From contig JABLXX010000004.1 of assembly GCA_013177825.1 (NCBI GenBank), positions 101,990 through 165,989 on the forward strand: a stretch of 64,000 nucleotides of DNA, read 5' to 3'. The position numbers and the translations under genes are program-made. Shown piece after piece: positions 14,570 to 45,000 of the stretch (position 1 is its first letter; each line of letters starts with the position of its first letter). Source of the DNA: Syntrophaceae bacterium. GTDB lineage: Bacteria > Desulfobacterota > Syntrophia > Syntrophales > PHBD01. The notes below the pieces were generated by a model, which ran no database searches, was not told the origin of the DNA, and saw only the letters and a list, made by a program, of their open reading frames with translations.

Positions 14570-14573
14570 AAGG

Positions 14574-19468: not shown

Positions 19469-19505
19469 ACGGGCGGAGACCGGCCGGAACGGCCGAGCCG
19501 CCCGT
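19469..19505 (+). other. hairpin (8-bp stem ACGGGCGG/CCGCCCGT) between the EF-hand gene and the ahbA/B-type gene
   Basis: Inverted repeat read at 19469-19476 and 19498-19505, followed only by TTT. Possible weak terminator or attenuator. Confidence 0.3.
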
Positions 19506-19517
19506 TTACGGTGAGTG

Positions 19518-26646: not shown

Positions 26647-26809
26647 CGTTTTTTCCCTCCTGTTCCGCCGCCGAAGCGGCCAAGGTGTTGAAACAAGGGA
26701 TGCTTATACATGATGAGGGACTCGATGGAAAGGGAAAAAACGGGACCGCCGGTTCGGGCAAACCCCGGTTTGCTTTGCCTTTTCCGGGAGGTGTGATAGG
26801 TAGGGACCC

Positions 26810-27982: not shown

Positions 27983-28037
27983 ATTTTCCTCCTCCGTAGG
28001 GTAAGAAGAAGTTCATCGTTTCGGTGAGGAGAATCTC

Positions 28038-28844
28038 ATGGGCGACATGACAAAACATCCCATCGGCGTGTTCGACTCCGGCGTGGGAGGGCTCACGGTA
28101 GTGCGGGCGCTCATGGAGCGGCTCCCCTTCGAGGGCATCGTCTATTTCGGAGATACCGCCCGGGTTCCCTACGGCGTCAAGTCCGTCGAGACGGTGACCC
28201 AGTACGCCATCGAGATCACGGACTTCCTGCTGAAGAAGGGAGTCAAACTCCTCGTCATCGCCTGCAACACCGTCGCCGCCGTGGCCGGTGACGCCGTGCG
28301 GAGCCGCTCGCCCGTGCCGGTCCTGGACGTCATCGACGCCGGCGCCCGTTCCGCCGTCCGGGAGACACGCTCCCACCATGTCGGCGTCATCGGGACCCCC
28401 GCCACGATCAACAGCAACGCCTATGCCCGGGCCATTCATGCCCTCGATCCGGCGACCCGCATCTTTTCCCAGGCCTGTCCGCTTTTCGTGCCCCTCGTGG
28501 AGGAAGGGTGGCTCGATCACACAGTGACGCGGATCACGGCCAACGAATACCTGAAGCCCGTCCTGGCGGAGCACCTGGACACCCTGGTCCTGGGGTGCAC
28601 CCATTATCCCCTGCTGAAACCACTCCTCGGAGAGATCGCCGGTCCCGATGTTCACCTGGTGGATTCGGGGGAGGCGATGGCGGATGCCACGGCGGACCTC
28701 CTGACGGAGCTTCACCTGGGAAACCCGAGCCGGGAGAAGCCCTCCTATTCCTGCTATGTCAGCGACGTTCCTTTCCGGTTCCAGACCATGGCCGAGCGGT
28801 TTCTCGGCAGGACGATCGGCCACGTCGAGCTGGTGAAACTCTGA
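28038..28844 (+). CDS. murI: glutamate racemase
   Basis: ORF 28038..28844. IGVFDSGVGGLTV, the two catalytic Cys contexts IACNTVAA and LGCTHYPLL. Confidence 0.9.
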   Translation: MGDMTKHPIGVFDSGVGGLTVVRALMERLPFEGIVYFGDTARVPYGVKSVETVTQYAIEITDFLLKKGVKLLVIACNTVAAVAGDAVRSRSPVPVLDVIDAGARSAVRETRSHHVGVIGTPATINSNAYARAIHALDPATRIFSQACPLFVPLVEEGWLDHTVTRITANEYLKPVLAEHLDTLVLGCTHYPLLKPLLGEIAGPDVHLVDSGEAMADATADLLTELHLGNPSREKPSYSCYVSDVPFRFQTMAERFLGRTIGHVELVKL

Positions 28845-30080
28845 ATGATGGAACGGGTCGTTGTCACCGGACTGGGAACCCTCAACGCAACCGCCAAGAG
28901 CGCCCCTGTCTTCGCGCAGGCCCTGCGGGAGGGCCGCTGCGGGATCGGGCCGTTTTCGGTCTTCGATCCCTCGACGTTCCGGACACAGATCGCCGCGGAA
29001 GTGAAGGATTTCAATCCCCGCGACCACATCCCCCGGCCGTACCCGATCAAGCGCATGTCCCGGGCGGACCTTCTCGGATTCGCCGCGACCCTGGAGGCCC
29101 TGCAGGACGCCGGGCTAGCCCCGCTTTCGCCGGTACTGGCGGAGGAGACGGGCGTCGTCATCGGCGGAGGCGGGGGGGGGCTCCTGGAGGGGGAGCGGTT
29201 CTACGGCGAATACCTGCGCACGGAGGGCAGGCTGGCCCGCTTCTCTGCCCTGTCGGCGGTCTACTGCGCCTCATCGGCGGACCGGATCGCGAGCCTCCTG
29301 GGGCTCCGGGGACCCAAGACCACCTTCATGACGGCCTGCTCTTCCGGGGCCACCGCCGTCGGCTACGCCCGGGACCTGATCCGGAGCGGAGCAGCCCCGG
29401 TCGTCATCGCCGGCGGGACCGAGCCCCTCTGCCGCATCACCTACGCCGCTTTCAACGCTCTCCAGGCGGTGGACCCGGAACCCTGCAAGCCCTTCGCCGG
29501 AAACCGGGCGGGTCTTTCCCTGGGAGAGGCGGCGGGGATCCTGGTTCTCGAGTCCCTCGGACACGCCCGGGCCCGGGGGGCCCGGATCTATGCCGAGGTG
29601 CTGGGCTACGGCGTCACCTGCGACGCGCACCACATGACGGCCCCCGACCCGGAGGCCTCCGGGGCGGTCCGGTCGATGCGGGAGGCCCTGCGCGACGCCG
29701 GCGTTTCCGCGGAGCGGGTCGATTACGTCAACGCCCACGGCACCGCCACGCCGGCCAACGATGTCATGGAGAGCCGGGCCATCCGGCACGTCTTCGGCGA
29801 CCGGGCCGGGCGAATCCCCGTCAGCTCCACGAAGTCCATGACGGGCCATACCCTGGGCGCCTCGGGAGCCCTCGAGGCGGTCGCGTCCGTCCTGGCGATC
29901 CGCCACCGGTTCATCCCGCCGACGATCCACTGCACCGTGCCGGATCCCGAATGCGATCTCGACTATGTCACCGAGGGGGCGCGGGAAACGGACCTGGCGG
30001 TGATTCTGTCCAATTCCTTCGCCTTCGGGGGGAACAACACCTCGCTCGTCATCGGGCGGTTCGAAGGAGGGAACGGGTAG
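28845..30080 (+). CDS. beta-ketoacyl synthase (FabF/KAS II-like) with intact Cys-His-His triad
   Basis: ORF 28845..30080. The ATG abuts the murI TGA. Active-site contexts TACSSGATA (Cys), NAHGTATPAND (His), SMTGHTLGASG (His). Confidence 0.85.
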   Translation: MMERVVVTGLGTLNATAKSAPVFAQALREGRCGIGPFSVFDPSTFRTQIAAEVKDFNPRDHIPRPYPIKRMSRADLLGFAATLEALQDAGLAPLSPVLAEETGVVIGGGGGGLLEGERFYGEYLRTEGRLARFSALSAVYCASSADRIASLLGLRGPKTTFMTACSSGATAVGYARDLIRSGAAPVVIAGGTEPLCRITYAAFNALQAVDPEPCKPFAGNRAGLSLGEAAGILVLESLGHARARGARIYAEVLGYGVTCDAHHMTAPDPEASGAVRSMREALRDAGVSAERVDYVNAHGTATPANDVMESRAIRHVFGDRAGRIPVSSTKSMTGHTLGASGALEAVASVLAIRHRFIPPTIHCTVPDPECDLDYVTEGARETDLAVILSNSFAFGGNNTSLVIGRFEGGNG

Positions 30081-30081
30081 C

Positions 30082-31317
30082 ATGGACCGGCGCGTCGCGA
30101 TCACCGGCATCGGCATCGTCTCCCCCCTCAGCTCCGGCCGCGAGGCCTTCGGGAAGGCCCTTTTTGCCGGGGAAAGCGGGATCGCCCCCGTGACCGCATT
30201 TCCCGTGGAGGCGCTTTCCTGCCGGCTGGCGGCGGAAATCCGCGATTTCCAGGCGAGGGACTTCATCTCCGTCAAAAACCTCCGGCGCATGGACCGCCTC
30301 TCCGCCGTGGCGACGGCGGCGGCCCGGATGGCCTTGGACGACGCGGGGCTCGCCGTAACGCCGGCCAACCGGGACCGCACGGGCATGATCCTGGGGACGG
30401 CCTGGGGCGGCACCGACGTGACGGTCTCCTTTGCCCGGGTCCTGGTGACGGAGGGACCCGGATCCGCCAACCCGATCCTCGTGCCCAACGTGGTCATGAA
30501 CGCCCCGGCGGGGCATGCCTCCATCGAGCTGGGGTTCCGGGGGATCAATACGACGGTCAACCACTACGCCGTCTCGGCGGAGTCGGCCCTGGCCTACGGC
30601 GCTCAGGAGATCCGGCGGGGCGCCGCGGACGTCCTTCTGGCCGGCGGGGCCGACGTCCTGGCCCCTTTCTACTTCGAGTCCCTGACGCGCTTCAAGGCGC
30701 TGTCGCCCCTCCAGGGCGGGGGCTCCGAAGGCGCCCGCCCCTTCGACCTCCGGCGGAACGGGCCGGTGGCAGGGGAGGGCTGCGGGATCCTCTGCCTGGA
30801 GCCGCTGGATGCGGCCCGGGAGCGGGGCGCAACCGTCCATGCGGAGATCGTGGGGCAGGGCATGGCCTCTTCGCCGGCGCCCATGACCGGCTGGCCGGAG
30901 GACCCGCGGGGCCTTGTCCTGGCGGTCCGCCGGGCGCTCCGGTCCGCCGGTTGCGGGCCGGAGGACGTGGACGCCGTCTTCGCCGCCGCCAGCGGCGGCC
31001 TTCAGCCGGACCTCCTGGAGGCGGAAGGGCTGGAGCAGGTGTTCGGGCCAGGTGGAAAGATGCCGCTCGTGACGGCCCTGAAGGGCGCCCTCGGGGAGAG
31101 CTTCACCTCCGGGGGGATGCGGGCGGCGGCCTTGGCCCTGGCGCTCCGGGACGGCGCCGTGCCCCCCACCCTGGGACTGGAAGACCCGGTCCGGCCACTG
31201 AATATCGTGACGGGGCCGTCCGTCCGGGCGAATGTGCAAAGAGGACTCCTGAACGGGATCTCCCACGGGGGGAGCTACGTCTCCCTTCTGTTTTCCAATA
31301 TCGGGGAAGAATCATGA
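30082..31317 (+). CDS. ketosynthase-fold protein lacking the catalytic triad (chain-length-factor/KS-beta-like partner)
   Basis: ORF 30082..31317, 1 nt after the KS stop. Aligned by eye to the upstream KS: ACSSG becomes AVSAE, AHGTAT becomes AAASGG, TGHTLG becomes KGALGE. Cys, His and His are all replaced. Confidence 0.75.
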   Translation: MDRRVAITGIGIVSPLSSGREAFGKALFAGESGIAPVTAFPVEALSCRLAAEIRDFQARDFISVKNLRRMDRLSAVATAAARMALDDAGLAVTPANRDRTGMILGTAWGGTDVTVSFARVLVTEGPGSANPILVPNVVMNAPAGHASIELGFRGINTTVNHYAVSAESALAYGAQEIRRGAADVLLAGGADVLAPFYFESLTRFKALSPLQGGGSEGARPFDLRRNGPVAGEGCGILCLEPLDAARERGATVHAEIVGQGMASSPAPMTGWPEDPRGLVLAVRRALRSAGCGPEDVDAVFAAASGGLQPDLLEAEGLEQVFGPGGKMPLVTALKGALGESFTSGGMRAAALALALRDGAVPPTLGLEDPVRPLNIVTGPSVRANVQRGLLNGISHGGSYVSLLFSNIGEES

Positions 31318-32837
31318 ACATCGGAGAATGGATTGAAAAGAGGGCCTTTACCCACCCGGACCGGGAATTCCTGAAGGACGGTGAGCGGGCCTTCAGCAAC
31401 CGGGCCTTCAACGAGCGGGTCAACCGGACGGCCCGGGCGCTCCAGAACCTGGACATCGTGAAGGGCGAGCGCCTGGCGCTCATCATGGGCAACACGAGCG
31501 AATTCCTGGAGATCTTCTTCGCCTGCGCCAAGACGGGGGCCATCCTGGTGCCTGTGAACTACAGACTGGCGGGGCCGGAGATCGAATACATCCTCCGCGA
31601 CTCGGCCCCCCGGGGGCTCGTCTACGCCGTCGAGTTTGCCGAAAAGGCGGCTCCCCTCAAGGAGCCGGGCCTGGGGATCCGCCACTGGATCCGCCACGGC
31701 GGAGAGCCCCTTCCCGGGGAATCGCTCCTGTCGGACCTGACGGCGGCCGAGTCGGATGGCGAGCCAAGGCCGATGGAGGAAGTGACGGGCGAGGACCCCC
31801 TCTTCATTATGTACACCTCCGGAACGACGGGCGATCCGAAAGGGGCCGTCCTGACCCATGGGAACATCCTCTTCGGGGCCGTCCATTCCCTCATCGGCTA
31901 CGGCGTCAACCGGACCTACCGGTCCCTCGTCGTGGCGCCCCTCTTCCACATCGGCGCCCTGGCGGCGTCGGTCACGCCGGTCATCTACGCCGGCGGCTCC
32001 GTCGTCCTGTCGGGGTTCTTCAACGCCTCGGAAGTCCTCCTGACCATTGTCCGGGAGCGGATCAACTACATGTTCGCCGTCCCCGTCATGTTCCAGATCA
32101 TGGCGGACACGCCCGAGTGGGCCGGGGCGGACCTGTCCCACGTCCACTTCTTCATTTCCGGGGGGGCGCCGATCCCCCTCCCGGTCATCCGGAAGTACCA
32201 GGACGAGAAGGGGATCGGCTTCGTCCAGGGCTACGCCCTCACGGAGACGGGGCGGCTCACGTCGCTGGACCTGGAGGACGCCGTCCGGAAGGCCGGGTCC
32301 GTGGGCAAGGAGGTCTTCCACGTGCGGCTCCGCATCGTCGACGAGGAAGACCGGGACGTCGCCCCCGGGGAGCCCGGGGAGATCGTCGTGAAAGGTCCCA
32401 ATGTCTTCTCCGGCTACTGGCGGAAGCCGAAGGAAACTGCGGAGGCCAAGAAAGGCGGCTGGTTCCGGACGGGCGACATGGGGCGGCGGGACGAGGACGG
32501 ATTTCTCTACATCATCGGCCGCAAGGTGGAGATGATCATCTCCTCCGGGGAGAACATCTACCCCGCCGAGGTGGAGCGGGCGATCCAGTCCCTCCCGGCG
32601 GTGAAGGAAGCGGCGGCCGTGGGCATGCCGGACCCGAAGCGGGGAGAGGTGGTGGCGGCCTTCGTGCTGCTCAGGGAGGGCGAGGCTGTGACGGAGGAGG
32701 ACATCCTGGCAGGGCTCCAGGGGAAGATCGCCCCCTTCAAGATGCCGAAGCGGATTTTCTTCGTCGACTCCTTCCCGAGGAATCCCGGCGGCAAGATCCT
32801 CAAGCGCATCCTCCAGAAGCGCCTGCGGGAGGGATGA
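31314..32837 (+). CDS. acyl-CoA synthetase / acyl-adenylate-forming ligase (AMP-binding family)
   Basis: 3' part of ORF 30951..32837. ATG 31314 overlaps the upstream stop (ATGA). AMP motif MYTSGTTGDPKGA, TGDMGRRDEDGFLYIIGR, C-terminal PRNPGGKILKR. Confidence 0.85.
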   Translation: MNIGEWIEKRAFTHPDREFLKDGERAFSNRAFNERVNRTARALQNLDIVKGERLALIMGNTSEFLEIFFACAKTGAILVPVNYRLAGPEIEYILRDSAPRGLVYAVEFAEKAAPLKEPGLGIRHWIRHGGEPLPGESLLSDLTAAESDGEPRPMEEVTGEDPLFIMYTSGTTGDPKGAVLTHGNILFGAVHSLIGYGVNRTYRSLVVAPLFHIGALAASVTPVIYAGGSVVLSGFFNASEVLLTIVRERINYMFAVPVMFQIMADTPEWAGADLSHVHFFISGGAPIPLPVIRKYQDEKGIGFVQGYALTETGRLTSLDLEDAVRKAGSVGKEVFHVRLRIVDEEDRDVAPGEPGEIVVKGPNVFSGYWRKPKETAEAKKGGWFRTGDMGRRDEDGFLYIIGRKVEMIISSGENIYPAEVERAIQSLPAVKEAAAVGMPDPKRGEVVAAFVLLREGEAVTEEDILAGLQGKIAPFKMPKRIFFVDSFPRNPGGKILKRILQKRLREG

Positions 32838-33979
32838 TGGAGATCCTGCCCTGGACCGGTGAGCACCGGGCCTTCCGCGAGGAATTCCGCGGGTTCCTCG
32901 CCAGAGAGGTCATTCCCTTCGTGGACCGGTGGGAGGCCGACGGCATCGTTCCCCGGTCGGCCTGGCTGGCCATGGGCGCAGCAGGGTTTCTCTGCACCGA
33001 CGTGCCCCGGGAGTACGGCGGCCGCGGCCTCGATTTCCTCCATTCCGTCATCGTCGTGGACGAGATGGCGAAGACCAACTGCTACGGTCTCTCCCCGCGG
33101 CTCCACAGCAACGTGGTCGTCCCCTACATCACGTCCTTCGCCTCCGAAGAGCTCAAGCACCGCTACCTGCCAGGCTGCATCCGGGGCGAGATCGTCACCG
33201 GCATCGCCATGACGGAGCCCCACGCCGGGAGCGACGTGGCGGCCATCCGGACAAGTGCCGTGGAGGACGGCGATTTCGTGGTCCTGAACGGCCAGAAGAC
33301 CTTCATCTCCAACGGAACCAACGGCGACCTCTTCGTGGTGGCCGCGAAGGACCCGGCGACGGAGGACCCCCACCGGGCCGTGGACATCTACCTGGTGGAG
33401 GGGAAGACCCCGGGCTTCGAAAGGGGGCGCCGCCTGAAGAAGGCGGGCTGGCACAGCCAGGACACGACGGAGATCTTCTTCCACGACTGCCGGGTGCCCC
33501 TGACCCACCGCCTCGGCGGGAAGGGCTCGGGGTTCAAGAACCTGATGCGGCACCTCCAGCCGGAGCGCCTTGTCGTGGCCATCGGCGCCGTCTCCGCGGC
33601 GGAGTGGGTCCTGGAGCACACGATTTCCCACGTGAAGAAGACGGACGTCTCGGGGACGGCCCTGTCGTCGTTCCAGCACGTCCGCTTCGAGATCGCCGAA
33701 ATGGCTACGGAGGTCCAAATCGGCCGGACCTTCGTGGACAAGCTCATCGCCGACCACATCGAGGGGAAGAACGTCGTCCGGGAGGTCTCCATGGCCAAGT
33801 GGTGGACCACCGAGACGGCCTGGCGGATCGCCGACCGGTGCCTCCAGCTCCACGGCCGCCTGGGCCTCGACGAGAGCGGCCCCCTCGCCCGGGCCTGGCG
33901 GGACCTCCGCGTCACCCGCATCCTCGCCGGCACCAATGAAATCATGAAAGGCATCATCGCCCGGATGACGGGGATATAA
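32834..33979 (+). CDS. acyl-CoA dehydrogenase
   Basis: 3' part of ORF 32117..33979. ATG 32834 overlaps the ligase stop (ATGA). TGIAMTEPHAGSDVAA, QKTFISNG, C-terminal RILAGTNEIMKGIIAR. Confidence 0.85.
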   Translation: MMEILPWTGEHRAFREEFRGFLAREVIPFVDRWEADGIVPRSAWLAMGAAGFLCTDVPREYGGRGLDFLHSVIVVDEMAKTNCYGLSPRLHSNVVVPYITSFASEELKHRYLPGCIRGEIVTGIAMTEPHAGSDVAAIRTSAVEDGDFVVLNGQKTFISNGTNGDLFVVAAKDPATEDPHRAVDIYLVEGKTPGFERGRRLKKAGWHSQDTTEIFFHDCRVPLTHRLGGKGSGFKNLMRHLQPERLVVAIGAVSAAEWVLEHTISHVKKTDVSGTALSSFQHVRFEIAEMATEVQIGRTFVDKLIADHIEGKNVVREVSMAKWWTTETAWRIADRCLQLHGRLGLDESGPLARAWRDLRVTRILAGTNEIMKGIIARMTGI

Positions 33980-33988
33980 TGAGAAAAT

Positions 33989-34033
33989 AGGTCGGATTTA
34001 TTTTCTATGTTGCAGTGCAAAATAATCTGACCT
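33989..34033. repeat. imperfect inverted repeat in the only AT-rich spacer of the locus
   Basis: AGGTCGGATTTATTTT (33989-34004), a 14-nt loop, then AAAATAATCTGACCT (34019-34033). It lies between the ACAD stop and the first radical-SAM gene. Confidence 0.5.
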
Positions 34034-34049
34034 ACTTTTCGAGGGAGCC

Positions 34050-35159
34050 ATGAACGTCCGGATCGTCAACCTTCACCCGGGGTGCGAGAACAACGCCCTG
34101 TTTCTTTCCCGGGCCCGGCGCTACTTCGAGTTGAACGGCCACCGGGCCGGTGGCGAGAGGGAGGCGGACCTGGTGTTTGTGGGGGCCTGCGTCGTGACCG
34201 ACTGGATGCGCCGGCGGTGCGAGGAAGCCATCGCCGGGGCGATGCACAGCCATCCGCTGGCTCATTTCGTTGTCTTCGGCTGCCTGGCGGCCTTTCCCGG
34301 GGAACTGCAGGCGTGCCTCGGCGGGGAGGCCGCCCGGATCCGGTTCATCCCGTACGGAGCGAGCGCCGAACTGGACGCCCTCGTCGGGGCGCGCGTTCCT
34401 TTCGAGACCGTCCACGTCTCCCGTCTTGAAGGGCACCGTCCCTACCAGCCCCGCATGGGGCCGGATGACCGCTACCTCCTGATCTCCCAAGGTTGTGTCA
34501 ACGACTGCAGCTACTGCAGCATCCGGCTGGCCAAGGGGCGGGTCCGTAGCCGGCCGGCGGAGGAGATCGAGGCGGATGCCCGCGAACTGTACGATCAGGG
34601 CGTCCGGACCGTGACCCTGCTCGCGGACGACTGCGGCTCCTACGGCCTCGACCGGGACGACGACCTTCCGGGGCTGCTTGGCCGGATCTGCAGGATCGCC
34701 CCGGACCTCCGGATCAAGCTCTACACGGTGTTCCCGGCCCTGTTCCTGCAATACGCCGACCGGCTGGCACCGTTTTTCGCCGCCGGGCGCATCCCCTACG
34801 TCTGCCTGCCCGCCCAATCCGCATCCCCGCGCATCCTGGACCTGATGAACCGCCGCTACGACCCCGGCCGCCTGGCGGATGCGGTTCTCCGGCTCCGTGC
34901 CCTCGATCCCGGCGTCTTCGTCTATTCCCACTTCATCTTTGCCTTCCCAACGGAGACCTGGGAGGAGCTTGCGGAAAGCGTCTCCTTCGCCGGACTCTTC
35001 GATCACTCCGTCTTCATCGGCTATGGTGGAAACCGGGTGACCCGGGCGGCGGCCCTGGCCTCCCGGTGCGACGACGCCGACCGGCAGGCAAAAGCGGATT
35101 ACCTGGGGCGACTGGTGGCGGAAGGAAAGCTCGCCTCGTTCGTGGTGCCCTATGCCTGA
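34050..35159 (+). CDS. radical SAM protein, methylthiotransferase-like (UPF0004 N-domain + rSAM core) without TRAM domain, paralogue A
   Basis: ORF 34050..35159, 369 aa, RBS GAGGGAG. N-terminal Cys at 12, 47 and 78 (MTTase spacing). Core GCVNDCSYCSIRLAKGRVRSR. The protein ends about 30 aa after the barrel. Confidence 0.75.
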   Translation: MNVRIVNLHPGCENNALFLSRARRYFELNGHRAGGEREADLVFVGACVVTDWMRRRCEEAIAGAMHSHPLAHFVVFGCLAAFPGELQACLGGEAARIRFIPYGASAELDALVGARVPFETVHVSRLEGHRPYQPRMGPDDRYLLISQGCVNDCSYCSIRLAKGRVRSRPAEEIEADARELYDQGVRTVTLLADDCGSYGLDRDDDLPGLLGRICRIAPDLRIKLYTVFPALFLQYADRLAPFFAAGRIPYVCLPAQSASPRILDLMNRRYDPGRLADAVLRLRALDPGVFVYSHFIFAFPTETWEELAESVSFAGLFDHSVFIGYGGNRVTRAAALASRCDDADRQAKADYLGRLVAEGKLASFVVPYA

Positions 35160-36318
35160 TCCCGCAGCGGCCCCGAAGCCCGGCATCTTCGTCTTCAACC
35201 CGAGCCGGCGCTGCGCCCCCGGCGCATACCTCTTTACCCAGGCGGTCCGCTTCTTCCTCCTGAACGGCCACCCCCTGGTGCGGGACGTCCGGGACGCCGG
35301 GATCATCCTCGTGAACTCCTGCTGCGTCACGGAGGGAAAGATCGGCACGTCCCTGGCGGCGCTCGAGACGGCCAGGAGTCACGGGAAGGGGAAGAGCGTG
35401 GTTCTCCTGGGCTGCCTGGCCGGCCTGCCGGACACCCCGTTCGATCCGGAGGGGGTGTTGTGCGTCGGGCCGAAGGACCTGGACCTTCTCGATACGCATT
35501 TTCCAAACCGGATCCCTGTCCGGGCGGCCGCGGCGAGCCGCCTGCCGCCGGAGTTCTTCCTGCCGGGACAGCACCTCGGTCCGCAGGACGCCTTCCTCTT
35601 CATCGGCCAGGGATGCGTGAACGCCTGTTCCTACTGCAACATCCGCCGCGCGAAGGGAGGCCTGTCGAGCGTGCCCGTGGAGTCGATCCTCTCCCGGGCC
35701 CGCAGCGGGCTCGAACGAGGCGTGCGGGAATTCGCCCTGCTGGCGGATGACTGCGCCAGCTACGGCCGGGACATCGGGAGCGACCTGGTCGATCTGATCG
35801 GGGGGCTCCTCGGGCTGGACGGCGGCTTGTCGCTCAAGCTGAGCTACGTGTTCCCATCCTTCGTGGAGGATCGCTTCGACGATCTGGCGCCGCTCTTTGC
35901 CACCGGGCGCATCCGCTACGCGAACATCCCGCTCCAGTCGGGCTCGCAGCGCATCCTGGACCTGATGAACCGGCGCTATCCCATCGGCCGGGTCGTGGAG
36001 CGCGTGCGACGGCTCCGGGAGATCGCGCCCCGGTCGCTCCTCTGTACCCATGTCCTCATCAATTTTCCCACGGAGACCCGGGAGGACTTCCGGGCGTCCC
36101 TGGCCCTGGCGGACGCCTTCCGCGACACGTACTTTCTCCACTATTCGGACAACCGGGGGACTCCCGCGGCCCGGCTGGAGCCGAAGGTCCCGCCGGAGGA
36201 GGCGCTGCGGCGGCTGGACGCCGCCTCGGACTTCGTGAACGCCCGGGGGCGGGGGGTGGTGATCCGGGATTTCGACTGCGATCTGCCCTATAACGTCAGC
36301 CGGGATCGGGGTGCCTGA
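35152..36318 (+). CDS. radical SAM protein, methylthiotransferase-like without TRAM domain, paralogue B
   Basis: ORF 35152..36318, 388 aa, with an 8-nt overlap on A. N-terminal Cys at 21, 57 and 88. Core GCVNACSYCNIRRAKGG. Shares LLADDCxSYG, ILDLMNRRY and FPTET with paralogue A. Confidence 0.75.
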   Translation: MPDPAAAPKPGIFVFNPSRRCAPGAYLFTQAVRFFLLNGHPLVRDVRDAGIILVNSCCVTEGKIGTSLAALETARSHGKGKSVVLLGCLAGLPDTPFDPEGVLCVGPKDLDLLDTHFPNRIPVRAAAASRLPPEFFLPGQHLGPQDAFLFIGQGCVNACSYCNIRRAKGGLSSVPVESILSRARSGLERGVREFALLADDCASYGRDIGSDLVDLIGGLLGLDGGLSLKLSYVFPSFVEDRFDDLAPLFATGRIRYANIPLQSGSQRILDLMNRRYPIGRVVERVRRLREIAPRSLLCTHVLINFPTETREDFRASLALADAFRDTYFLHYSDNRGTPAARLEPKVPPEEALRRLDAASDFVNARGRGVVIRDFDCDLPYNVSRDRGA

Positions 36319-37834
36319 CATGGCCCTGCCGCTCATCAAGGTCGTCCAACTCACCCTGACCAACCGGTGCCAGTTGAGCTGCCAACACTGCGGGGTGGCG
36401 GAGCTCAGAAACGTCATGCCCGGCGAGCTGACCCTGGAGCAGATCGACGATGTCTTCCGGGACCTCCGGCTGGCCGGCTGCCTGGTGGTGGATCTCTTCG
36501 GCGGCGAGCCGACGCTCAGGAAGGACCTGTTCGAGATCATCCGGCGCGGAAAGGCCTCCGGATTCATGATGTCCCTGGAGACGAACGGCTGGCTCCTGGA
36601 CGGGGCCTTCGTCCGGGAGCTGGAAGCGGCGGGCCTGAACCAGATCTACCTCAGCCTGGACGATTCCCGCCCGGAGGAGCATGACCGGCGGAGGGGAAGG
36701 GCGGGGAGCTTCGAGCGGGCCGTCCGGGCGTTGGAGCTGGGGGCGGCGACCTCCATGGCCGTGCATGTCTCCATCGTGCCGCAGACGGCCGAATTCTTCA
36801 CCGGCGGTGCCATGAACCGGTTCATGGCCTTCGTCCTGGCGAAGGGGGCCGAAAAGGTGCGGCTCCTCCTGCCCCGCTTTTCCGGCCGGTCGGCCCATCC
36901 AGACGGGACTCCCTTTGCGGCCCGCCGGGAGCGGGATCTCTTCGCCTGCATCGCCCCGGAGTACGCCCCCCACATTTACGTTCACACGCCGGGAACGCCG
37001 TTGGGAGAGACGAATAAGTGCACGGCCAAGAACATCTTCTGCCACATCATGAGCAACGGCTGGATCGCCCCCTGCCCGTACCTTCCCCTCGTCTTTGGCG
37101 ATGCGACCCGGGAATCAGTCGTAGAGGTGTTCGAGCGGATGCAGTCCCATCCGCTGGTTCGGCTGGGCGGCGACACCTGCCCGATGCGGAATCCCGACTA
37201 CATCGAGGAGCACATCCGGCCGATGGGCACGGGACGTCCCTTCTATCCCGTTGCCTCGAAAAACCAGGTGGATCTCGGCGCCCCCTGCCCGCCGGACTGC
37301 CGCGGCTGCGATGCCGCCGGAAGGCCGTCGCGCAGGCCCGCCGAGGCGGTGATCCGCGACCTTCAGGCCGTGGACCCGAACTACCGGAGCATCGAGTTCT
37401 ACGGCGGGGACGCGCTGCTCCGGGCCGATCTGATCGGCATCCTTGGCCGCGTTCCCCCGGGCATGGATATCCGCCTCTGGACCACGGGAAGCTGGCTGCC
37501 GGAGGATCCGGGGTTCCGGGAACAGTTACGTTCCTTTCCCGTCCGCGCCATCCGGGTGATGATGCCGCTTGGCGAGGCGGGGACACCGGGCGGCCTGGGA
37601 GACGCTCTCGGACGGATCCGGGCCGTGCAGGGGCTGGGCATCCCCATCCATCTGTACGCCCCGGCGGACGCCCCGGCGGAGGCGCACCGGATTGTGGCCG
37701 AAAACGCGGCCCGTCTGGGGGTGGAGCGGATCTATCTCTTCCGCCGGGATCCGGTGTCGCCCCTGTCGAACGCAGTCGCCTGTTTCGGCAGGGCCCTCGG
37801 CCGGGCAAGGCTTGCCTGGGCCGCCCGACCATAA
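36311..37834 (+). CDS. radical SAM protein with SPASM/twitch-like Cys cluster and a C-terminal second CxxxCxxC module
   Basis: ORF 36311..37834 (GTG 36311 overlaps B by 8 nt; alternative ATG 36320). CQLSCQHC plus GGEPTL. Auxiliary CTAKNIFCHIMSNGWIAPCPY...GDTCP. A second CPPDCRGC (nt 37286-37309) is followed by YGGDALL. Confidence 0.75.
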   Translation: MPDMALPLIKVVQLTLTNRCQLSCQHCGVAELRNVMPGELTLEQIDDVFRDLRLAGCLVVDLFGGEPTLRKDLFEIIRRGKASGFMMSLETNGWLLDGAFVRELEAAGLNQIYLSLDDSRPEEHDRRRGRAGSFERAVRALELGAATSMAVHVSIVPQTAEFFTGGAMNRFMAFVLAKGAEKVRLLLPRFSGRSAHPDGTPFAARRERDLFACIAPEYAPHIYVHTPGTPLGETNKCTAKNIFCHIMSNGWIAPCPYLPLVFGDATRESVVEVFERMQSHPLVRLGGDTCPMRNPDYIEEHIRPMGTGRPFYPVASKNQVDLGAPCPPDCRGCDAAGRPSRRPAEAVIRDLQAVDPNYRSIEFYGGDALLRADLIGILGRVPPGMDIRLWTTGSWLPEDPGFREQLRSFPVRAIRVMMPLGEAGTPGGLGDALGRIRAVQGLGIPIHLYAPADAPAEAHRIVAENAARLGVERIYLFRRDPVSPLSNAVACFGRALGRARLAWAARP

Positions 37835-37879
37835 AAAAAACAGGCCCGGTTCAATGCCTCTCCTGCAGGAGGAGGCGGA

Positions 37880-37975
37880 ATGGCGCGAATTCACGGGACG
37901 ATGCCCGATTATGCCGCAAGCCGGGGGAATTTTTCATTGTATTTTGGGAGATGGATAGGTATACGGCCATACTAA
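37880..37975 (+). CDS. candidate 31-codon micro-ORF (MARIHGTMPDYAASRGNFSLYFGRWIGIRPY) downstream of the radical-SAM trio
   Basis: Not on the ORF track (too short). ATG 37880 lies 4 nt after a strong AGGAGGAGG (37867-37875), stop TAA 37973-37975. Aromatic-rich, with locally low GC. Coding status is unproven. Confidence 0.3.
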   Translation: MARIHGTMPDYAASRGNFSLYFGRWIGIRPY

Positions 37976-38057
37976 TCGTCCAGGCACACCCGGTCTTCGC
38001 GGTGAGGAATCATCGGCGGAGACCGCAGGAATCCACGCGGGGAGGGAAGGTTCCGAA

Positions 38058-38234
38058 ATGCAGGAAATCTTGACGGCCGTCACCTACCTGTTGGTCTGGC
38101 TCCTCTGCGAGCGGGTCATCGGGATCGAGAGCGGACTGGTGAATCTGGTTGTCTCGCTGGGGGCGGCCGTGGGCGTTTACGTCTTCATCGCCGTCCGGGA
38201 CCACCGCAAGAAGAAAGAAAACGGAGAGCCCTAG
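38058..38234 (+). CDS. candidate 58-aa two-helix membrane micro-protein
   Basis: Not on the ORF track (<60 aa). ATG 38058 lies 7 nt after GGGGAGGGAAGG. MQEILTAVTYLLVWLLCERVIGIESGLVNLVVSLGAAVGVYVFIAVRDHRKKKENGEP has two hydrophobic helices and a basic tail. Codon usage matches the host. Confidence 0.45.
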   Translation: MQEILTAVTYLLVWLLCERVIGIESGLVNLVVSLGAAVGVYVFIAVRDHRKKKENGEP

Positions 38235-38334
38235 CGGACGCCGGTTTCGAATCCACGAAGACCAGTGCCGCCGCCGTCACCGCCGGTCTCATCCGCCGCT
38301 CGGCCGTTTCAGCGGCGAACGCAGGATGAAGGCC

Positions 38335-38363
38335 CGTCCCTGTGCCGGGACGCCGGATTTTTC
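38335..38363 (+). terminator. weak terminator-like hairpin with T5 run closing the plus-strand gene block
   Basis: CGTCCC tgtgcc GGGACG, then CCGGA TTTTT (T-run 38359-38363). The stem is short, so confidence is low. Confidence 0.35.
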
Positions 38364-38389
38364 CGCTGCCGCGGTTGCAGGCCCGTCCT

Positions 38390-39421
38390 TTATCCCCCCG
38401 TCACGAGTACCTTCGCTCCCCGGATTTTTCCTTCCTTCAGCTCCGACAGGGCGTGGTTCGCCTCCGCCAGCGGGTAGGCCTGCACCTCCGGCCGGATCGG
38501 GATCTCCGCCGCCATGGCCAGGAATTCCGCGATGTCCCGGCGGGCCACGTTGGCCGCGCTTTTGATCTCCTTCTCCATCCAGAGATGTTCGGGATACTGG
38601 AGGGCGAGGAGGACCTCCTTGTCGCCCTCCTCCTTGCGGATCGCGTTGATCACCAGGCGGCCCCCCGGTGCCAGGTTTTTCAAGGCCTCCACGACGGGCT
38701 TCCAGGCGGGGGTCGTGTCGATCACGGCGTCGAGCCGTTCCGGGGCCGTATCGGCCGTATCCCCCGCCCAGACGGCGCCCAGCTCCCGGGCGAAGGCCCG
38801 CTCCCGCTCGCTCCTCGCGAAGACGAAGACGGGGGTGTCGGGGTAGCGGTGCCGCACCAGCCGGAGAACCAGGTGGGCCGAGGCGCCGAATCCCGTGAGG
38901 CCGAGCCGTTGACCGTTCCGCAGGCCTGTCAGCCGGAGGGACCTCCAGCCGATGGCCCCGGCGCACAGGAGGGGAGCCGCCTCGACGTCGTTAAACGCCG
39001 GCGGCAGGGGATGGGCGAAAGCCTCCGGAACGGTTATGTATTCGGCGTACCCGCCATCGGTGTCCCGTCCCGTTGCCTCGAAGTCCGGGCAGAGATTCTC
39101 GTTTCCCTCCAGGCAGAATGGACAGCGGCCGCAGGCGCGGTAGATCCAGCCTACGCCGACCCGTTCTCCGACCGGAAACCGCTCCGCCCCGGATCCACGC
39201 CCGACGACGCGGCCCACCACCTGATGGCCGGGGATGACGGGGAAGCGGGGCGGTGGCGTCCGTCCCTCGATCTCGTCCAGCTCCGTGTGGCAGACACCGC
39301 AGGCGGAGACCCGGAGAAGGACCTCGCCTTCTCCCGGAACGGGCGTGGGAACCTCTGCAAACGCCAGGGGACTTCGATTTTCGGTGAAACGGGATATACC
39401 CTTCAGGAACATTGCCTTCAT
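38390..39421 (-). CDS. zinc-dependent alcohol dehydrogenase family (MDR) oxidoreductase
   Basis: ORF 38390..39430 (TTG); the first ATG at 39421 gives MKAMFLKG.... Zn motif ACGVCHTELDE, structural Zn Cys cluster CGRCPFCLEGNENLC, Rossmann LTGFGASAHL. Confidence 0.85.
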   Translation of the reverse strand: MKAMFLKGISRFTENRSPLAFAEVPTPVPGEGEVLLRVSACGVCHTELDEIEGRTPPPRFPVIPGHQVVGRVVGRGSGAERFPVGERVGVGWIYRACGRCPFCLEGNENLCPDFEATGRDTDGGYAEYITVPEAFAHPLPPAFNDVEAAPLLCAGAIGWRSLRLTGLRNGQRLGLTGFGASAHLVLRLVRHRYPDTPVFVFARSERERAFARELGAVWAGDTADTAPERLDAVIDTTPAWKPVVEALKNLAPGGRLVINAIRKEEGDKEVLLALQYPEHLWMEKEIKSAANVARRDIAEFLAMAAEIPIRPEVQAYPLAEANHALSELKEGKIRGAKVLVTGG

Positions 39422-39432
39422 GGGGAGCAACC

Positions 39433-40659
39433 CTACTTTCCCTTCTTCATGGCCAGCTTGAGGGCCGTGAGGAGACCCTTCTCCCGGATGGCCTTCGCGG
39501 CGATCCCCCCGGGGGTGATCTCGAAGAACTTCTCCCCGTAGCGGGCGAGCCTGTCCTCGTCCAGGACGATGCCGAGGCCCGGGGCCTCCGGCAGCGGAAC
39601 GGTGCCGTCGGCGGAGACCCGGATCGGTTCCGCCAGGATCCCGTCGCGGTACTCGGGGATCCAGGCGGGAGGTTCGTAAGGGTACTCGAGAGGGTGTTTC
39701 CGGGGGCCCGCGGCGTAAAGCTGGAGATTGACGAGGAAGCCGATGCCGTTCGTCCAGGTGTGAGGACTGAAGTCCAGGCCCTGGGCGGCGCAGGCGTCCA
39801 TGACCTTCTTCGAGTCGCCGATGCCGCCGCCCATGGTGGCGTCGGGCTGGTAGATGTCGAAGCTCCCCTTCTCCAGCATGATCTTGTACTCCTGCCAGCC
39901 GGCGTTTAGCTCCGCTCCGGCGATGGGAACGTCGGAGCGGCGGCGGAGCTCCGCCAGTTCATCCCAGGCGTACATGTCCAGGGGCTCCTCAAGCCAGGAG
40001 ACGCCCAGGTCTCTGCAGGCCCGGGCGAACTCGGTCGCCCGCTCGAGATCCCAGACCGGAGGCTTCTCGATGATCGTGACGGGCCATCCCTGGTTGGCGT
40101 CGACGCCGATCTCCATGGATTCTCCCACGGCCCGACGTACCGCCTCCACCTGGGCGACGTCCTCCGTGAGGGTGGCGCCGTGGACCCGGAGCTTCACCGT
40201 CCGGAATCCCATCTCCCGGAGGCGGAGCACCTCCTCGGTCCGCTGCGCCGGGGGGTGGACCTCGCCGGTGGAGGCGTAGACAGCGACAGGCCGGTTGTCC
40301 GTGCCGCCGAGAAGCGCCCAGGCGGGCTTTCTCTCCATCTTGCCCCGGATATCCCAGCAGGCCGCTTCGATCCAGTAGTTCCGCCAGCCCAGATAGCTGA
40401 TTTCACGGAGACGCCGGCGGACCAAGTCGATGTCCGTCGGGTCCAGGCCGATCAGATAGGGGCCGATGAGCCCGCCCAGGCCCTCCCGCTCCCGTTCGAA
40501 GGCCATGCCCGCCGCCAGGCCCTGGAGACCCCCGTCGGTGGTGAGGCGGATGAGGGTGAAGCGGTTCACCGTCTGGGGATAGCCGGGAATCCAGGACGGC
40601 CAGAACGGTTTGGGAAGGGGGACGGCGACGTGGAAAAGTTCGATGCGGTCGATTTTCAT
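39433..40659 (-). CDS. enolase-superfamily enzyme (mandelate racemase / muconate lactonizing enzyme family)
   Basis: ORF 39433..40659, 408 aa. MKIDRIELFHVAVPL, TVKLRV, metal ligand contexts GVDANQGW, LEEPL, IAGAE. Substrate unknown. Confidence 0.8.
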   Translation of the reverse strand: MKIDRIELFHVAVPLPKPFWPSWIPGYPQTVNRFTLIRLTTDGGLQGLAAGMAFEREREGLGGLIGPYLIGLDPTDIDLVRRRLREISYLGWRNYWIEAACWDIRGKMERKPAWALLGGTDNRPVAVYASTGEVHPPAQRTEEVLRLREMGFRTVKLRVHGATLTEDVAQVEAVRRAVGESMEIGVDANQGWPVTIIEKPPVWDLERATEFARACRDLGVSWLEEPLDMYAWDELAELRRRSDVPIAGAELNAGWQEYKIMLEKGSFDIYQPDATMGGGIGDSKKVMDACAAQGLDFSPHTWTNGIGFLVNLQLYAAGPRKHPLEYPYEPPAWIPEYRDGILAEPIRVSADGTVPLPEAPGLGIVLDEDRLARYGEKFFEITPGGIAAKAIREKGLLTALKLAMKKGK

Positions 40660-40753
40660 GGCAGCCTCCTTTTCTTCAGGAAAGAAAGCCCGTGATCCCG
40701 CCGTTCCGCGACCAGGCGGTCTTCGCCGCGGGCAGGGATCCGGGGCAAACCCG

Positions 40754-41659
40754 TCAGGCGAGGCGCCTGATCAGCCCCGCCAGTTCCTCCCGGTTGAATC
40801 GATAGGCGATCCGGCAGAAATGGCAGTTCACTTCCGCCTCTCCGGGATTGTCGAGGATCGCCTTGAGCTCGTCGGCCCCCAGGCTCAACAGGACCCGTTC
40901 GATCCGGCTGCGGCTGCAGGAGCACCGGAGGGTCAGGGGCTGGGTCTCCAGGATGCGGAACGGGATTTCGGAGAAGATGTCCCGGAGCAGGTCTTCCGGA
41001 GTCTTTCCTTCCTGGAGAAGCGCGGTTACGGGAAGCATCGCCTCCAGGCGGGAAGCGATGCGTTCCACCGACTCCGGATCCGGCGGGGGGAGTGACTGGA
41101 CCAGGAACCCCCCGGCGGCGGACACTCGGTCGTTGGATTCCACGTAAACGCCAAGGGCGATGGCGGAGGGGATCTGTTCCGATTCCAGGAGGTAATAGGC
41201 CAGGTCCTGAGCGATCTCCCCGGAACGGAGGCGAACGATGCCCTGGTAGGGTTCCTTCAGGCCGAGGTCTTTCAGGACCGTCAGGAAGCCGTTTTTCCCG
41301 AGCGCGCCGGACACGTCCAGCTTTCCATCCCGGTCCGGCACATCGGCCTCCGGGTTCTGGACATAGCCGCGGACGCTGCCGTCCCGTTCCGCCTCCACGA
41401 CGATCTTCCCCAGCGGGCCGTCGGCTTCGAACTTCAGGGCCAGTCCCTGGCCTTCCTTGAGAAGGGACGCCAGGAGCGCCCCGCCCGTGAGCGACCGGCC
41501 AAGAGCGGCGGCGGCCACGGGAGACGTCCCGTGACGGCGGGCGGACCGGGCGACAAGATCCGTGGTGACACAGGCCAGGGCCAGGACCCCGCCGTCGTCG
41601 GAGATGGCTCGGACGAGGTAATTTTCAGGGTGATGGTGTTTTTGAGGCGTTTCCGTCAT
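40754..41659 (-). CDS. hslO: redox-regulated chaperone Hsp33
   Basis: 3' part of ORF 40754..41761, ATG 41659. YLVRAISDDGGVLALACVTTDLV and the C-terminal zinc centre CSCSRSR...CHFC. Confidence 0.85.
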   Translation of the reverse strand: MTETPQKHHHPENYLVRAISDDGGVLALACVTTDLVARSARRHGTSPVAAAALGRSLTGGALLASLLKEGQGLALKFEADGPLGKIVVEAERDGSVRGYVQNPEADVPDRDGKLDVSGALGKNGFLTVLKDLGLKEPYQGIVRLRSGEIAQDLAYYLLESEQIPSAIALGVYVESNDRVSAAGGFLVQSLPPPDPESVERIASRLEAMLPVTALLQEGKTPEDLLRDIFSEIPFRILETQPLTLRCSCSRSRIERVLLSLGADELKAILDNPGEAEVNCHFCRIAYRFNREELAGLIRRLA

Positions 41660-42005
41660 GGTCCCTGCCGAGCGAACGGTGAGCGTTGAGGGCCTCTCCG
41701 GAGACCCCCGCGGGTGGTCGGCGCGCACTGGGGATGTAACAAAAAACCCTTTATGTTGCAAGTGGTTGTTCTTGTTCTGCGGGGTGTGTCATGGATTCCA
41801 TAGGGGGGTGAAATCGACTTGACAGGACGCCCTAATCGTGGTAGCGGCTCCACGGTCCAATCACGCCTCCCTCCAACGGGGGCGGTCGTAAGAGCGGTTT
41901 CATCGCAAGGTCCGCATATCTGCCCGATTCGCGTTCTGATCGATAATCCTGGGTGGAATGACGGGACGGACGAAAACATTCTGAGATATCCCGAGGTGGT
42001 GTCCA

Positions 42006-45000
42006 GTGGCTCAATCAAGCGAAAAAATCGGTGCGGTCATGGTAGTGGGGTCCGGAATCGCCGGCATTCAGGCGTCCCTGGATCTGGCAAACTCCGGCTT
42101 GAAAGTTTATCTGGTGGAAAAAGGCATCAGCATCGGCGGCGTCATGGCCCAGCTGGACAAGACCTTTCCCACCAACGACTGTTCTGCCTGTATCCTTTCC
42201 CCGAAGCTGGTGGAAGTGGGCCGCCATCCCAACGTGGAGATTCTCACCCGGCGGACCGTAGAATCCGTAGAGGGTGAGCCGGGCCGCTTCAAGGTCCGGA
42301 TGACGAAGGCGCCGCGGTTCGTCGACCTCTCCAAGTGCACCGGCTGCGGCGACTGTGCCAATGTCTGCCCCATCTCCGTTCCTTCCGACTTCAACGAAAA
42401 CTTGAGCGAGCGGAAGGCCACCTATCGGCATTTTCCCCAGGCCATTCCCAGCGGCTTCGCCATCGACAAGCTCGGCACCTCCCCCTGCAAGGCGAACTGC
42501 CCCACCCACATCAGCGTGCAGGGCTACGTCGCCCTCATCGCCACGGGGAAATTCAAGGAAGCCCTGAAGCTCATCAAAAAAGACAACCCGTTCCCCATCG
42601 TCTGCGGCCGGGTCTGCAACCATCCCTGCGAGACCGCCTGCATGCGAGGCAAAGTCGACGAGCCCATCGACATCATGCACCTGAAACGGTTCGTGGCCGA
42701 TCTCGACCTGAAGGACGAGACCCGCTACATCCCCGACAAGAAGGAGAGCAAGGGCAAGAAGGTGGCCGTCGTCGGCGCCGGCCCCGCCGGCCTGACCTGC
42801 GCCTACTACCTGGCCGCCGAAGGCTATGACGTCGAGGTCTTCGAATCCCTCCCCGTCGCCGGCGGCTGGCTGGCAGTGGGCATTCCCGAGTACCGGCTTC
42901 CCAAGGATGTCCTGAAGGCCGAGATCAAGGTCATCGAGGACCTGGGGGTCAAGATCCACCTGAACAGACCCGTGGGCAAGGACCTCCCCTTCGCCCAGCT
43001 CCAGAAGGACTTCGATGCCGTCTTCATCGGCTGCGGAACCGTCAACAGCAGCAAGCTGAACATCCCCGGGGAAGACATGCAGGGCGTCATCCATGGCGTC
43101 GATTACCTGAAGCGGGTGAACCTGGGCGAGAAAGTCTTCCTGGGCGACAAGGTCGCCGTCGTCGGCGGCGGGAACGTCGCCATGGACGCCGTCCGGACGG
43201 CCATCCGTACGGGCTCGAAAGACGTCTTCATACTCTACCGCCGGTCCCGGGCCGAAATGCCCGCCTCGCCGGAGGAGATCGAAGAGGCCCTGGAAGAGGG
43301 CATCAAGATGGAATTCCTCGTGGCCCCCAAGCGGGTCGTGGGGGAAGGCGGCAAGGTCACGGGCATCGAGTGCACCCGGATGGAACTTGGCGAGCCCGAC
43401 GCCAGCGGGCGCAGGCGGCCCATCGAGATCAAGGGCTCCGAGTTCATCGTCCCCTGCGACGCCTTGATTCCCGCCATCGGCCAGGAGGCGGACCTTGATT
43501 TCGTGCCTGCCGAGAGCGGCATCTCCATCAACAAATGGAAGAACTTCGACGTCGACGCGGTCACCTTCGCGACGAACGTCCCCGGCGTTTTCGCCGGTGG
43601 CGACGTGGTCACGGGACCCCAGACGGTCGTCAAGGCCGTCTTTGCCGGGAAGGAAGCGGCGGTGTCCATCGACCGGTATCTCCAAGGCGAGGACATGGCG
43701 GCGGGCCGGGCCAAGGACTGGACGAAGGATCTGGCCGACAAGGCCGACGTGAGCGCCGTTCCAAAGGCCCCCCGGGTCAAATATCCCCACATGAAGCCCG
43801 ACGAGCGGCGGACGACCTTCCAGGAAGTCGGCATCGGCTTCGGCGAGGAGGAGGCCGTCCGGGAAGCCCAGCGCTGCCTGGCCTGCGGCATCTGCTCCGA
43901 GTGCTACCAGTGTGTCGACGCCTGCATCGCCGGCGCCATCAAGCATGACGATACATTTGAGGAAGAGACCATCGAGGTCGGCGCCGTCATCGCCGCCCCG
44001 GGCTTCGAGACCTTCGACGCCTCCATCCGTGGGGAATACGGCTTCGGCACCTACGCGAACGTCGTGACGGCCATCCAGTTCGAGCGGATCCTTTCCGCCT
44101 CGGGTCCCTACTTCGGCCACGTCCAGCGCATCTCCGACGGCAAGGAGCCCAAGAAGATCGCCTTCATCCAGTGCGTGGGCTCCCGGGACACCTCCTGCGG
44201 TAACAGCTGGTGCTCCTCCGTGTGCTGCATGTACGCTACGAAGGAGGCCATCATCGGCAAGGAGCACGCCAAGGAACTGGAGCCGACGATCTTCTTCATG
44301 GACATCCGGGCCCATGGAAAGGATTTCGACCGGTTCGTCAACCGGGCAAAGAACGAATACGGGATCCGATACATCCGCTCCATGCCCTCCAGCGTGAAAG
44401 AGCTCCAGCAGTCCAAGAACCTGCTCCTCAAGTACGTCACCGAGGACGGCAAACTCGTCGAGGAAGAATTCGAGATGGTGGTCCTCTCGGTGGGTCTGAC
44501 ACCTCCCCCGGAGGCGGCGAAGCTTGCCAAGGCCCTCGGGATCGACCTCGAAGAGCACGGATTCTGCCGGACCGCCCTTGAGAATCCCGTCGAGACCAGC
44601 CGGAACGGTGTCTTTGTCTGCGGTGCCTTCGGCGGTCCCAAGGACATCCCCGAGACGGTCATGGAAGCATCGAGCGCCGCGGCATGCGCCGCCGGTCTCC
44701 TGTCGGAACGCCGCGGAACGATGATCACCGAGGAGGAATTGCCTCTGGAGACGGACATCCGCGGGGTCGGTCCCCGGACAGGCGTTTTCGTCTGCCACTG
44801 CGGCATCAACATCGGCGGCGTGGTCGATGTTCCGGGAGTCGTTGAGTACGCCAAGACCCTGCCCAACGTGGTCTTCGCCACGGATAACCTCTTCACCTGT
44901 TCCCAGGACACGGCTGTGAAGATGGGCGAGGTCATCAAGGAACAGAACCTGACGCGCGTCGTTGTCGCCTCCTGCTCCCCCCGGACCCACGAGGGTCTTT

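Follow-up and report, generated by a model that had tools for sequence, protein, structure and literature searches.

This report concerns three adjacent genes, here called A, B and C, in a 64,000-nucleotide stretch of DNA from Syntrophaceae bacterium (NCBI GenBank assembly GCA_013177825.1, contig JABLXX010000004.1, positions 101,990 to 165,989 of the forward strand), which is referred to as the window. A and B encode paralogous radical S-adenosylmethionine (radical-SAM) proteins that resemble methylthiotransferases (MTTases) but lack the C-terminal TRAM domain, and C, directly 3' of B, encodes a double radical-SAM protein (Table 1). An earlier note, made from the sequence alone, had described A and B as a tandem pair outside any translation context. 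The two are indeed adjacent, but the pair is not isolated: the conserved unit is the trio A-B-C.

Table 1. Genes A, B and C and the spacer preceding them, in window positions; residues of C are counted from the GTG at 36311.
Feature	Position	Strand	Description
Gene A	34050-35159	+	369 aa; TRAM-less methylthiotransferase-like radical-SAM protein
Gene A cysteines	34494-34517 (radical-SAM motif)	+	Auxiliary cluster C12, C47, C78; radical-SAM C149-x3-C153-x2-C156; C195 in ADDC, family-specific
Gene B	35152-36318	+	388 aa; TRAM-less paralogue of A
Gene B cysteines	35614-35637 (radical-SAM motif)	+	Auxiliary cluster C21, C57, C88; radical-SAM C155-x3-C159-x2-C162
Gene B, further cysteines			C201 in ADDC motif; C58, C298, C376 specific to the B type
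Gene C	36320-37834	+	Double radical-SAM protein; 507-aa open reading frame from GTG 36311
Gene C, N-terminal part	36320-37255	+	Core C20-x3-C24-x2-C27, then twitch/SPASM-like C237, C244, C255, C290
Gene C, C-terminal part	37256-37834	+	Second, shorter radical-SAM-like domain; C326-x3-C330-x2-C333 (37286-37309); FYGG(D/E) downstream
Spacer between the acyl-CoA dehydrogenase gene and A	33980-34049	+	70 nt, AT-rich; TATAAT-like hexamer and GAGGGAG ribosome-binding site

Genes A and B

The products of A and B share the principal features of the known MTTases (RimO, MiaB, MtaB and e-MtaB, the archaeal-type MtaB; PDB 4jc0, 7mjv-7mjz and 9a6d). Like these enzymes, they combine an N-terminal flavodoxin-like domain, whose three cysteines serve an auxiliary [4Fe-4S] cluster, with a CxxxCxxC radical-SAM core, and they share the overall fold (template modelling (TM) score ~0.73), with 24-30% identity over ~320-380 residues; the closest PDB entries by sequence are MiaB 7mjz and RimO 4jc0. 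Pfam Radical_SAM matched at 71.1 bits in A and 66.3 bits in B, and Pfam UPF0004 was found at both N-termini just below threshold (22.8 and 25.5 bits vs a gathering score of 27). The NCBIfam MiaB/RimO family model TIGR00089 matched A with an E-value of 6e-45 (153.8 bits) and B with 3.7e-53 (180.9 bits). The two genes overlap by 8 nt at the A stop and B start (ATGCCTGA), and their products are 40% identical over 336 residues (E 4e-55), with the motifs GCVN[D/A]CSYC, LLADDCxSYG, ILDLMNRRY and FPTET confirmed in the translations.

Unlike the known MTTases, A and B have no TRAM domain. Pfam gave no TRAM match in either protein, and the TIGR00089 alignments stop short of the TRAM part, at profile positions 361 (A, aligned over 8-361) and 354 (B) of 429. 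Placement relative to MiaB, RimO and MtaB was made by curated hidden Markov model (HMM) cut-offs and whole-library ranking, in place of a labelled tree. Neither protein reached the curated TIGR00089 family cut-off of 251 bits, nor any of the equivalog cut-offs (MiaB 355, RimO 357, MtaB 357 and e-MtaB 315 bits), for which A scored 95-120 bits and B 126-152 bits. They also differ from the MTTases in an extra conserved cysteine within the ADDC motif, in forming a paralogue pair coupled to another radical-SAM protein, with fusions to radical-SAM or B12 domains in other genomes, and in a sporadic distribution confined to metagenome-assembled genomes (MAGs). The earlier note had given the same reading frames and lengths, had called the proteins MTTase-like, paralogous and TRAM-less, and had named a cryptic TRAM-like domain, N-terminal cysteines not conserved in orthologues, and placement of both proteins in a clade of established tRNA or ribosomal substrate as outcomes that would count against it; its description held, and none of these outcomes was found.

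Conservation was assessed in alignments of 100 B-type relatives and of first 10, later 27, A-type relatives. The auxiliary-cluster cysteines C12, C47 and C78 of A were kept in all 27 orthologues, as were all six of its cluster cysteines; in B, C21 was retained in 97/100 and C57 and C88 in 100/100. The CxxxCxxC radical-SAM motif was invariant in orthologues of both. Since both paralogue lineages keep all six cluster cysteines, A and B are both probably active enzymes. The ADDC-motif cysteine was likewise kept in both (26/27 and 99/100), at a position occupied by threonine in RimO and valine in MiaB, and each lineage carries its own extra conserved cysteines.

An AlphaFold2 model of B, built on 44 sequences, had a predicted local distance difference test score (pLDDT) of 94.6 and a predicted TM score (pTM) of 0.91. 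All that follows the barrel in this confident model is a helix (348-365), a strand of three residues and a second, short helix; a TRAM beta-barrel is absent. Its best Foldseek matches were MtaB, MiaB and RimO, with TM scores of 0.73-0.74 normalised to the query and 0.63-0.66 to the longer targets, and the match spanned both the N-domain and the radical-SAM core. The lower target-normalised values are as would be expected if only the TRAM domains of MtaB, MiaB and RimO were left unmatched by the model.

Gene C

Gene C is translationally coupled to B. Its likely start is the ATG at 36320, 1 nt past the B stop, which agrees with the N-termini of orthologues. The N-terminal part of the protein has a radical-SAM core that starts at residue 15 (Pfam Radical_SAM, 95 bits), followed by four cysteines (C237, C244, C255 and C290) that are invariant in the alignment of C proteins; Pfam SPASM matches shorter homologues and not C itself. 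In this arrangement of a core with a cysteine-rich extension, the first 300 residues resemble the twitch/SPASM enzymes (SkfB, SuiB, PqqE, MftC, AhbD/NirJ, BlsE and MoaA), which gave the best HMM and fold matches, with SkfB, BlsE, SuiB and MoaA leading the Foldseek results. Unlike those enzymes, C scores no higher than 102 bits against cut-offs of 265-650 and has a second radical-SAM domain with its own CxxxCxxC motif. Within this second domain (residues 316-507), C326, C330, C333 and a GG(D/E) motif are invariant, and the AlphaFold2 model of C shows alternating strand-helix units over residues 360-479. An HMM of the second domain alone picks up the radical-SAM core at the N-terminus of these same proteins (E 1e-5 to 1e-9), a sign of internal duplication; C is therefore a double radical-SAM protein. 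The trio thus has four radical-SAM domains and, by cysteine count, would hold about seven Fe-S clusters.

Two other identities for C were considered and rejected. The model for Tes-like lipid synthases (Tes/GDGT-MAS, NF045702) gave 78.9 bits vs a cut-off of 450 and covered only core residues 12-142, and the match to tetraether synthase (PDB 7tol) was likewise confined to the radical-SAM core. A search for defence systems with PADLOC returned only generic radical-SAM-core matches of C to viperin models.

Elsewhere in the window, the N-terminal domain of C cross-matches two AhbC/AhbD-type radical-SAM/SPASM genes (15674-16855 and 17857-18972) at 26-38% identity. These belong to a tetrapyrrole cluster (13052-19964) that also includes a fused uroporphyrinogen methyltransferase/synthase-like gene, hemB and an AhbA/B-like regulator-type gene.

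Distribution and gene order of the trio

Loci were collected from contigs of a protein collection and from one representative genome per species, each scanned for A, B and C. The order of the genes was found to be A-B-C, B-C-A, or B-C with A on the opposite strand, and the flanks were otherwise unrelated. MAGs bearing the trio were assigned to Syntrophaceae, Syntrophales, Geobacteraceae, Desulfatiglandaceae, Methylomirabilis, Thermodesulfobacteriota, Sandaracinaceae and Methanobacteriota; one contig from Ignavibacteria carries B-C and is cut at B. Full-length C was present in only ~20 of 185,579 species representatives, which belong to distantly related phyla and include no cultured isolate. 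The window shares ~93% protein identity with Deltaproteobacteria bacterium HGW-Deltaproteobacteria-19. Plasmid records yielded only canonical miaB, rimO and generic SPASM maturases. At two loci (L007 and L026) the trio lies 1.5 kb from hemE-hemH-hemY, which may be coincidence.

The number of MTTase-like genes varies from one (L016, L032 and the loci with a short form of C) to three (L005), as would be expected for one enzyme per modified site. Gene fusions also link the components. A B-type protein and C form one polypeptide in a Nanoarchaeota MAG (P0202), a Binatia MAG (L030), P0244 and P0245; two MTTase-like proteins are fused in tandem in P0246 and P0248; and MTTase-like proteins are joined to B12-radical-SAM domains in P0279, P0282, P0324, P0326 and the 1903-aa P0291. 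The earlier note had suggested that A and B may form a heterodimer or act at two successive sulfur-insertion steps, and for this the tandem fusions are indirect support; the B-C fusions would predict an interface between B and C.

A phmmer search with B against 1.84 billion cluster representatives returned 583 proteins at E <= 1e-30. The best 150 of these were all non-canonical, as judged by their length and match pattern, and they comprise TRAM-less proteins of 350-400 aa, proteins of 400-470 aa with an insertion, and multi-domain fusions. Ten proteins of the 400-470-aa class were scanned; all lack TRAM, end at about profile position 355 and reach no equivalog cut-off. To judge from these matches, A and B belong to a large uncharacterised TRAM-less branch of at least 150 clusters at 50% identity and are not a one-off. 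The 400-470-aa proteins P0280 and P0310-P0381, in which the insertion lies between the N-domain and the radical-SAM core, form a second uncharacterised MTTase-like clade.

Literature on TRAM-less MTTases, on methylthiolation in natural products and in peptides made by the ribosome and modified after translation (RiPPs), on lipid radical-SAM enzymes and the genes for branched glycerol dialkyl glycerol tetraethers, and on DUF3467 was searched, and nothing describing the A-B-C family was found. As a variant of the methylthiotransferase kind, the trio is real and well defined, and it has so far gone undescribed.

Accessory genes in other genomes

In a subset of loci the trio lies within a longer same-strand cluster, and the same is true of a version in which there is only one MTTase-like gene and C takes a 321-aa form. 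The accessory genes encode HxsC-like radical-SAM proteins, B12-radical-SAM enzymes, a Methyltransf_2 O-methyltransferase and DUF3467 fused to varied partners, and a LynF/TruF/PatF-like protein is present in two loci. Five loci (L009, L016, L018, L022 and L023) have an export-like set in differing orientations, consisting of an outer-membrane efflux protein (OEP), HlyD, GAF-HlyD, an M50-peptidase-HlyD fusion and a truncated SecA-like ATPase. Neighbours of this kind resemble a tailoring pathway whose product is exported, rather than part of translation. At L009 a neighbouring gene is called at 14,908 aa.

A family of 290-aa proteins ending in KSGYYG-x-F always adjoins the HxsC-like radical-SAM gene in nine loci (L009, L016, L018, L019, L020, L022, L028, L029 and L033) and has no match in Pfam, NCBIfam or the PDB. 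Its assignment as a PatF/LynF-type prenyltransferase was unsupported, with an hhalign probability of 0.2 against the DUF5838 protein of L009 and no PDB match. The 1024-aa accessory protein and the DUF3467-X protein likewise have no match in the PDB. In the clusters with the 290-aa family, DUF3467 is fused to the O-methyltransferase or to an uncharacterised ~290-aa domain, as leader-binding domains behave in RiPP clusters; it is speculation that these fusions could play a leader-binding role like that of the RiPP recognition element (RRE).

Proposed function of the module

We propose that A-B-C works as a tailoring module of its own, with A and B, in complex with C, each attaching a thio or methylthio group to a peptide or small molecule. 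Homology and genomic context suggest this reading, whose probability we place only a little short of even. Methylthiotransferase activity consumes one S-adenosylmethionine as the source of the methyl group, which yields S-adenosylhomocysteine, and cleaves another to 5'-deoxyadenosine, with -SCH3 passed to carbon. The radical-SAM cluster of A and B would cleave S-adenosylmethionine to a 5'-deoxyadenosyl radical, while the N-terminal cluster would carry sulfur or methylated sulfur for delivery. In this way each protein may furnish an unactivated carbon with one thio or methylthio group, on a peptide or small metabolite rather than on RNA. A and B would act physically together with C, whose two radical-SAM domains might hold the same molecule or carry out additional C-H chemistry on it. 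For the sulfur chemistry, the type of substrate and the complex, we infer from homology and context, whereas the domain architecture, the conservation of cluster ligands, the coupling of the genes, their strict co-occurrence and their fusions are direct observations.

A useful comparison is with LipS1 and LipS2 of Thermococcus kodakarensis, two radical-SAM paralogues that jointly make the lipoyl group (PMC9585515). Like A and B, they are a paralogous pair with auxiliary clusters, and they fit one sulfur insertion each on one substrate (PMC9585515), an analogy for two successive steps; the likeness lies in the logic and not in the sequence. Unlike A and B, the LipS proteins are biotin-synthase-like, act on octanoyl-lysine and have no third double-domain partner.

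Several points weigh against a sulfur-transferring module acting on a peptide or small molecule. The chemistry of A and B is proposed by homology alone, and the substrates of all their characterised relatives are tRNA or ribosomal protein S12 (PMC10702137). The UPF0004 scores of both proteins are slightly under the Pfam gathering score. The homology and gene-neighbourhood analysis identified no substrate for A or B, and Pfam found no RRE or PqqD domain in A, B or C. An all-vs-all comparison of short open reading frames (18-130 aa) lying up to 2.5 kb from 22 trio loci, made to find a precursor peptide, gave no shared family apart from antisense artefacts and close relatives. The accessory and export genes are absent from the window and from several trio-only loci, and the Geobacter MAG locus L016 has C and A with no B within 10 kb. 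The earlier note had suggested a non-nucleic-acid substrate; the sporadic distribution and, elsewhere, the tailoring radical-SAM enzymes, O-methyltransferase and exporters make this plausible.

The only known MTTase substrates, according to a 2023 study, are tRNA A37 derivatives and Asp88 of ribosomal protein S12 (PMC10702137). The trio has the same two-cluster scaffold without TRAM, duplicated, wired to other radical-SAM domains and passed between anaerobes by transfer, and it points to a third use of the chemistry, outside translation. In a broader form of the tailoring proposal, A-B-C would be the core of a multi-radical-SAM assembly line and the first case of MTTase chemistry beyond tRNA and S12, which seems somewhat unlikely. 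If it were true, the TRAM-less clade, often fused to B12- or SPASM-type radical-SAM domains, would be the place to seek orphan methylthiolation enzymes, among them the maker of 17(2)-methylthio-F430, which the canonical archaeal MTTase has been excluded from producing (PMC10702137). The trio, compact at 3.8 kb, without obligatory neighbours and found in natural fusion variants, should be tractable for heterologous expression, and the identity of its product would annotate hundreds of metagenome genes now called "radical SAM protein" or mis-named "MiaB".

The upstream operon

Five genes on the plus strand (28038-33979) precede the trio in the window and end 70 nt before A. They encode MurI (glutamate racemase), a FabF-like ketosynthase (KS), a second KS that resembles a chain length factor (CLF) and lacks the active-site cysteine, an acyl-CoA ligase and an acyl-CoA dehydrogenase (ACAD). 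Gaps of 0-2 nt separate these translationally coupled genes, as in a single operon. The best named match of the second KS was the cispentacin AmcF subunit, below cut-off. Taken together they are an unusual set of type-II-polyketide-synthase-like genes joined to a cell-wall gene. To judge from its sequence, the spacer before A is a possible promoter of the trio's own, and a consensus promoter scan did not call it.

The linkage of the KS, CLF, ligase and ACAD genes to the trio is kept only in Syntrophaceae relatives, down to ~78% identity. In three close relatives (L001, L002 and L013) two genes are inserted at the site of the spacer, encoding a 418-aa AAA_15/AAA_21 ATPase and a 207-aa DUF4276 protein; the insertion looks like a mobile defence-type cassette in an intergenic hotspot. 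Because this cassette lies between them in these relatives, the trio is separable from the upstream genes. A metagenome scan with the CLF-like KS for joint travel with the trio returned only near-identical contigs and distant KS genes. In this genome the trio may be linked to acyl metabolism; such a link is not a family property.

Alternative explanations

The placement of these upstream genes raises the question of whether the trio modifies a fatty-acyl or polyketide chain made by their products, for example by two sulfur insertions as in lipoate. Five coupled genes on the same strand so close to A, an arrangement kept across the Syntrophaceae relatives, would fit this, and LipS1 and LipS2 provide the precedent of a paralogous radical-SAM pair sharing two sulfur insertions on an acyl chain (PMC9585515). 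The weak resemblance of the radical-SAM core of C to tetraether synthase points the same way, but the Tes model gives C only 79 bits against its cut-off of 450, and a 2026 review of lipid-modifying radical-SAM enzymes names no MTTase-type enzyme. Moreover, the linkage is confined to one family-level group, the trios of other taxa have no KS, ligase or ACAD neighbours, the defence-like cassette separates ACAD from A in three relatives, and no acyl carrier protein is among the open reading frames listed for 26,000-43,000. We consider this explanation quite improbable. Another possibility is that A and B modify RNA or a ribosomal protein after all, with recognition outsourced to a partner such as C in place of TRAM. 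Their nearest relatives in sequence and structure are MiaB, MtaB and RimO, and all three MTTase domains, not TRAM alone, contact the substrate (PMC10702137). The rRNA methyltransferase gene rlmL (26810-27982) also lies 6 kb upstream of the trio, but five unrelated genes stand between. The occurrence of full-length C in so few species of scattered phyla is unlike a modification of the translation apparatus, Pfam detected no RNA-binding domain in A, B or C, and the partners in other genomes are tailoring enzymes and exporters; a translational role is very improbable.

Another explanation keeps the MTTase scaffold and dispenses with sulfur transfer, the N-terminal cluster serving instead as an electron conduit or as a radical-quenching site for C-C cross-linking, desaturation, epimerisation or methylation. 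Auxiliary clusters fill many roles across the radical-SAM superfamily, and the distance of A and B from true MTTases is as great as that from each other's clade (~25-30% identity). The conserved ADDC cysteine, replaced by threonine in RimO and valine in MiaB, could be a hydrogen-atom donor or a covalent catalytic residue. Yet the strictly conserved three-cysteine ligation with one open iron site is the exact MTTase arrangement, and the fold match covers the N-domain as well as the core. A function of this kind is unlikely, and the tailoring module with sulfur-inserting A and B is the reading we prefer.

Other features of the window

A 58-aa open reading frame (38058-38234, plus strand), called as a gene 220 nt past C, has two predicted hydrophobic helices. 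It is conserved only in close Syntrophaceae relatives and was not counted as part of the module.

The region 3651-6641 has a GC content of 41%, compared with ~65% elsewhere, adjoins a tRNA gene (6726-6798, minus strand) and encodes small lipoprotein/lipocalin-like, OsmC-like and EthD-like proteins; this small islet was probably acquired horizontally. Downstream of the trio, the segment 42006-46430 (plus strand) encodes a 1474-aa HdrA-like flavoprotein/ferredoxin fusion, followed by a small MvhD-like gene. These genes are syntenic in close relatives, typical of syntrophic or sulfate-reducing Deltaproteobacteria, and unrelated to A-B-C.

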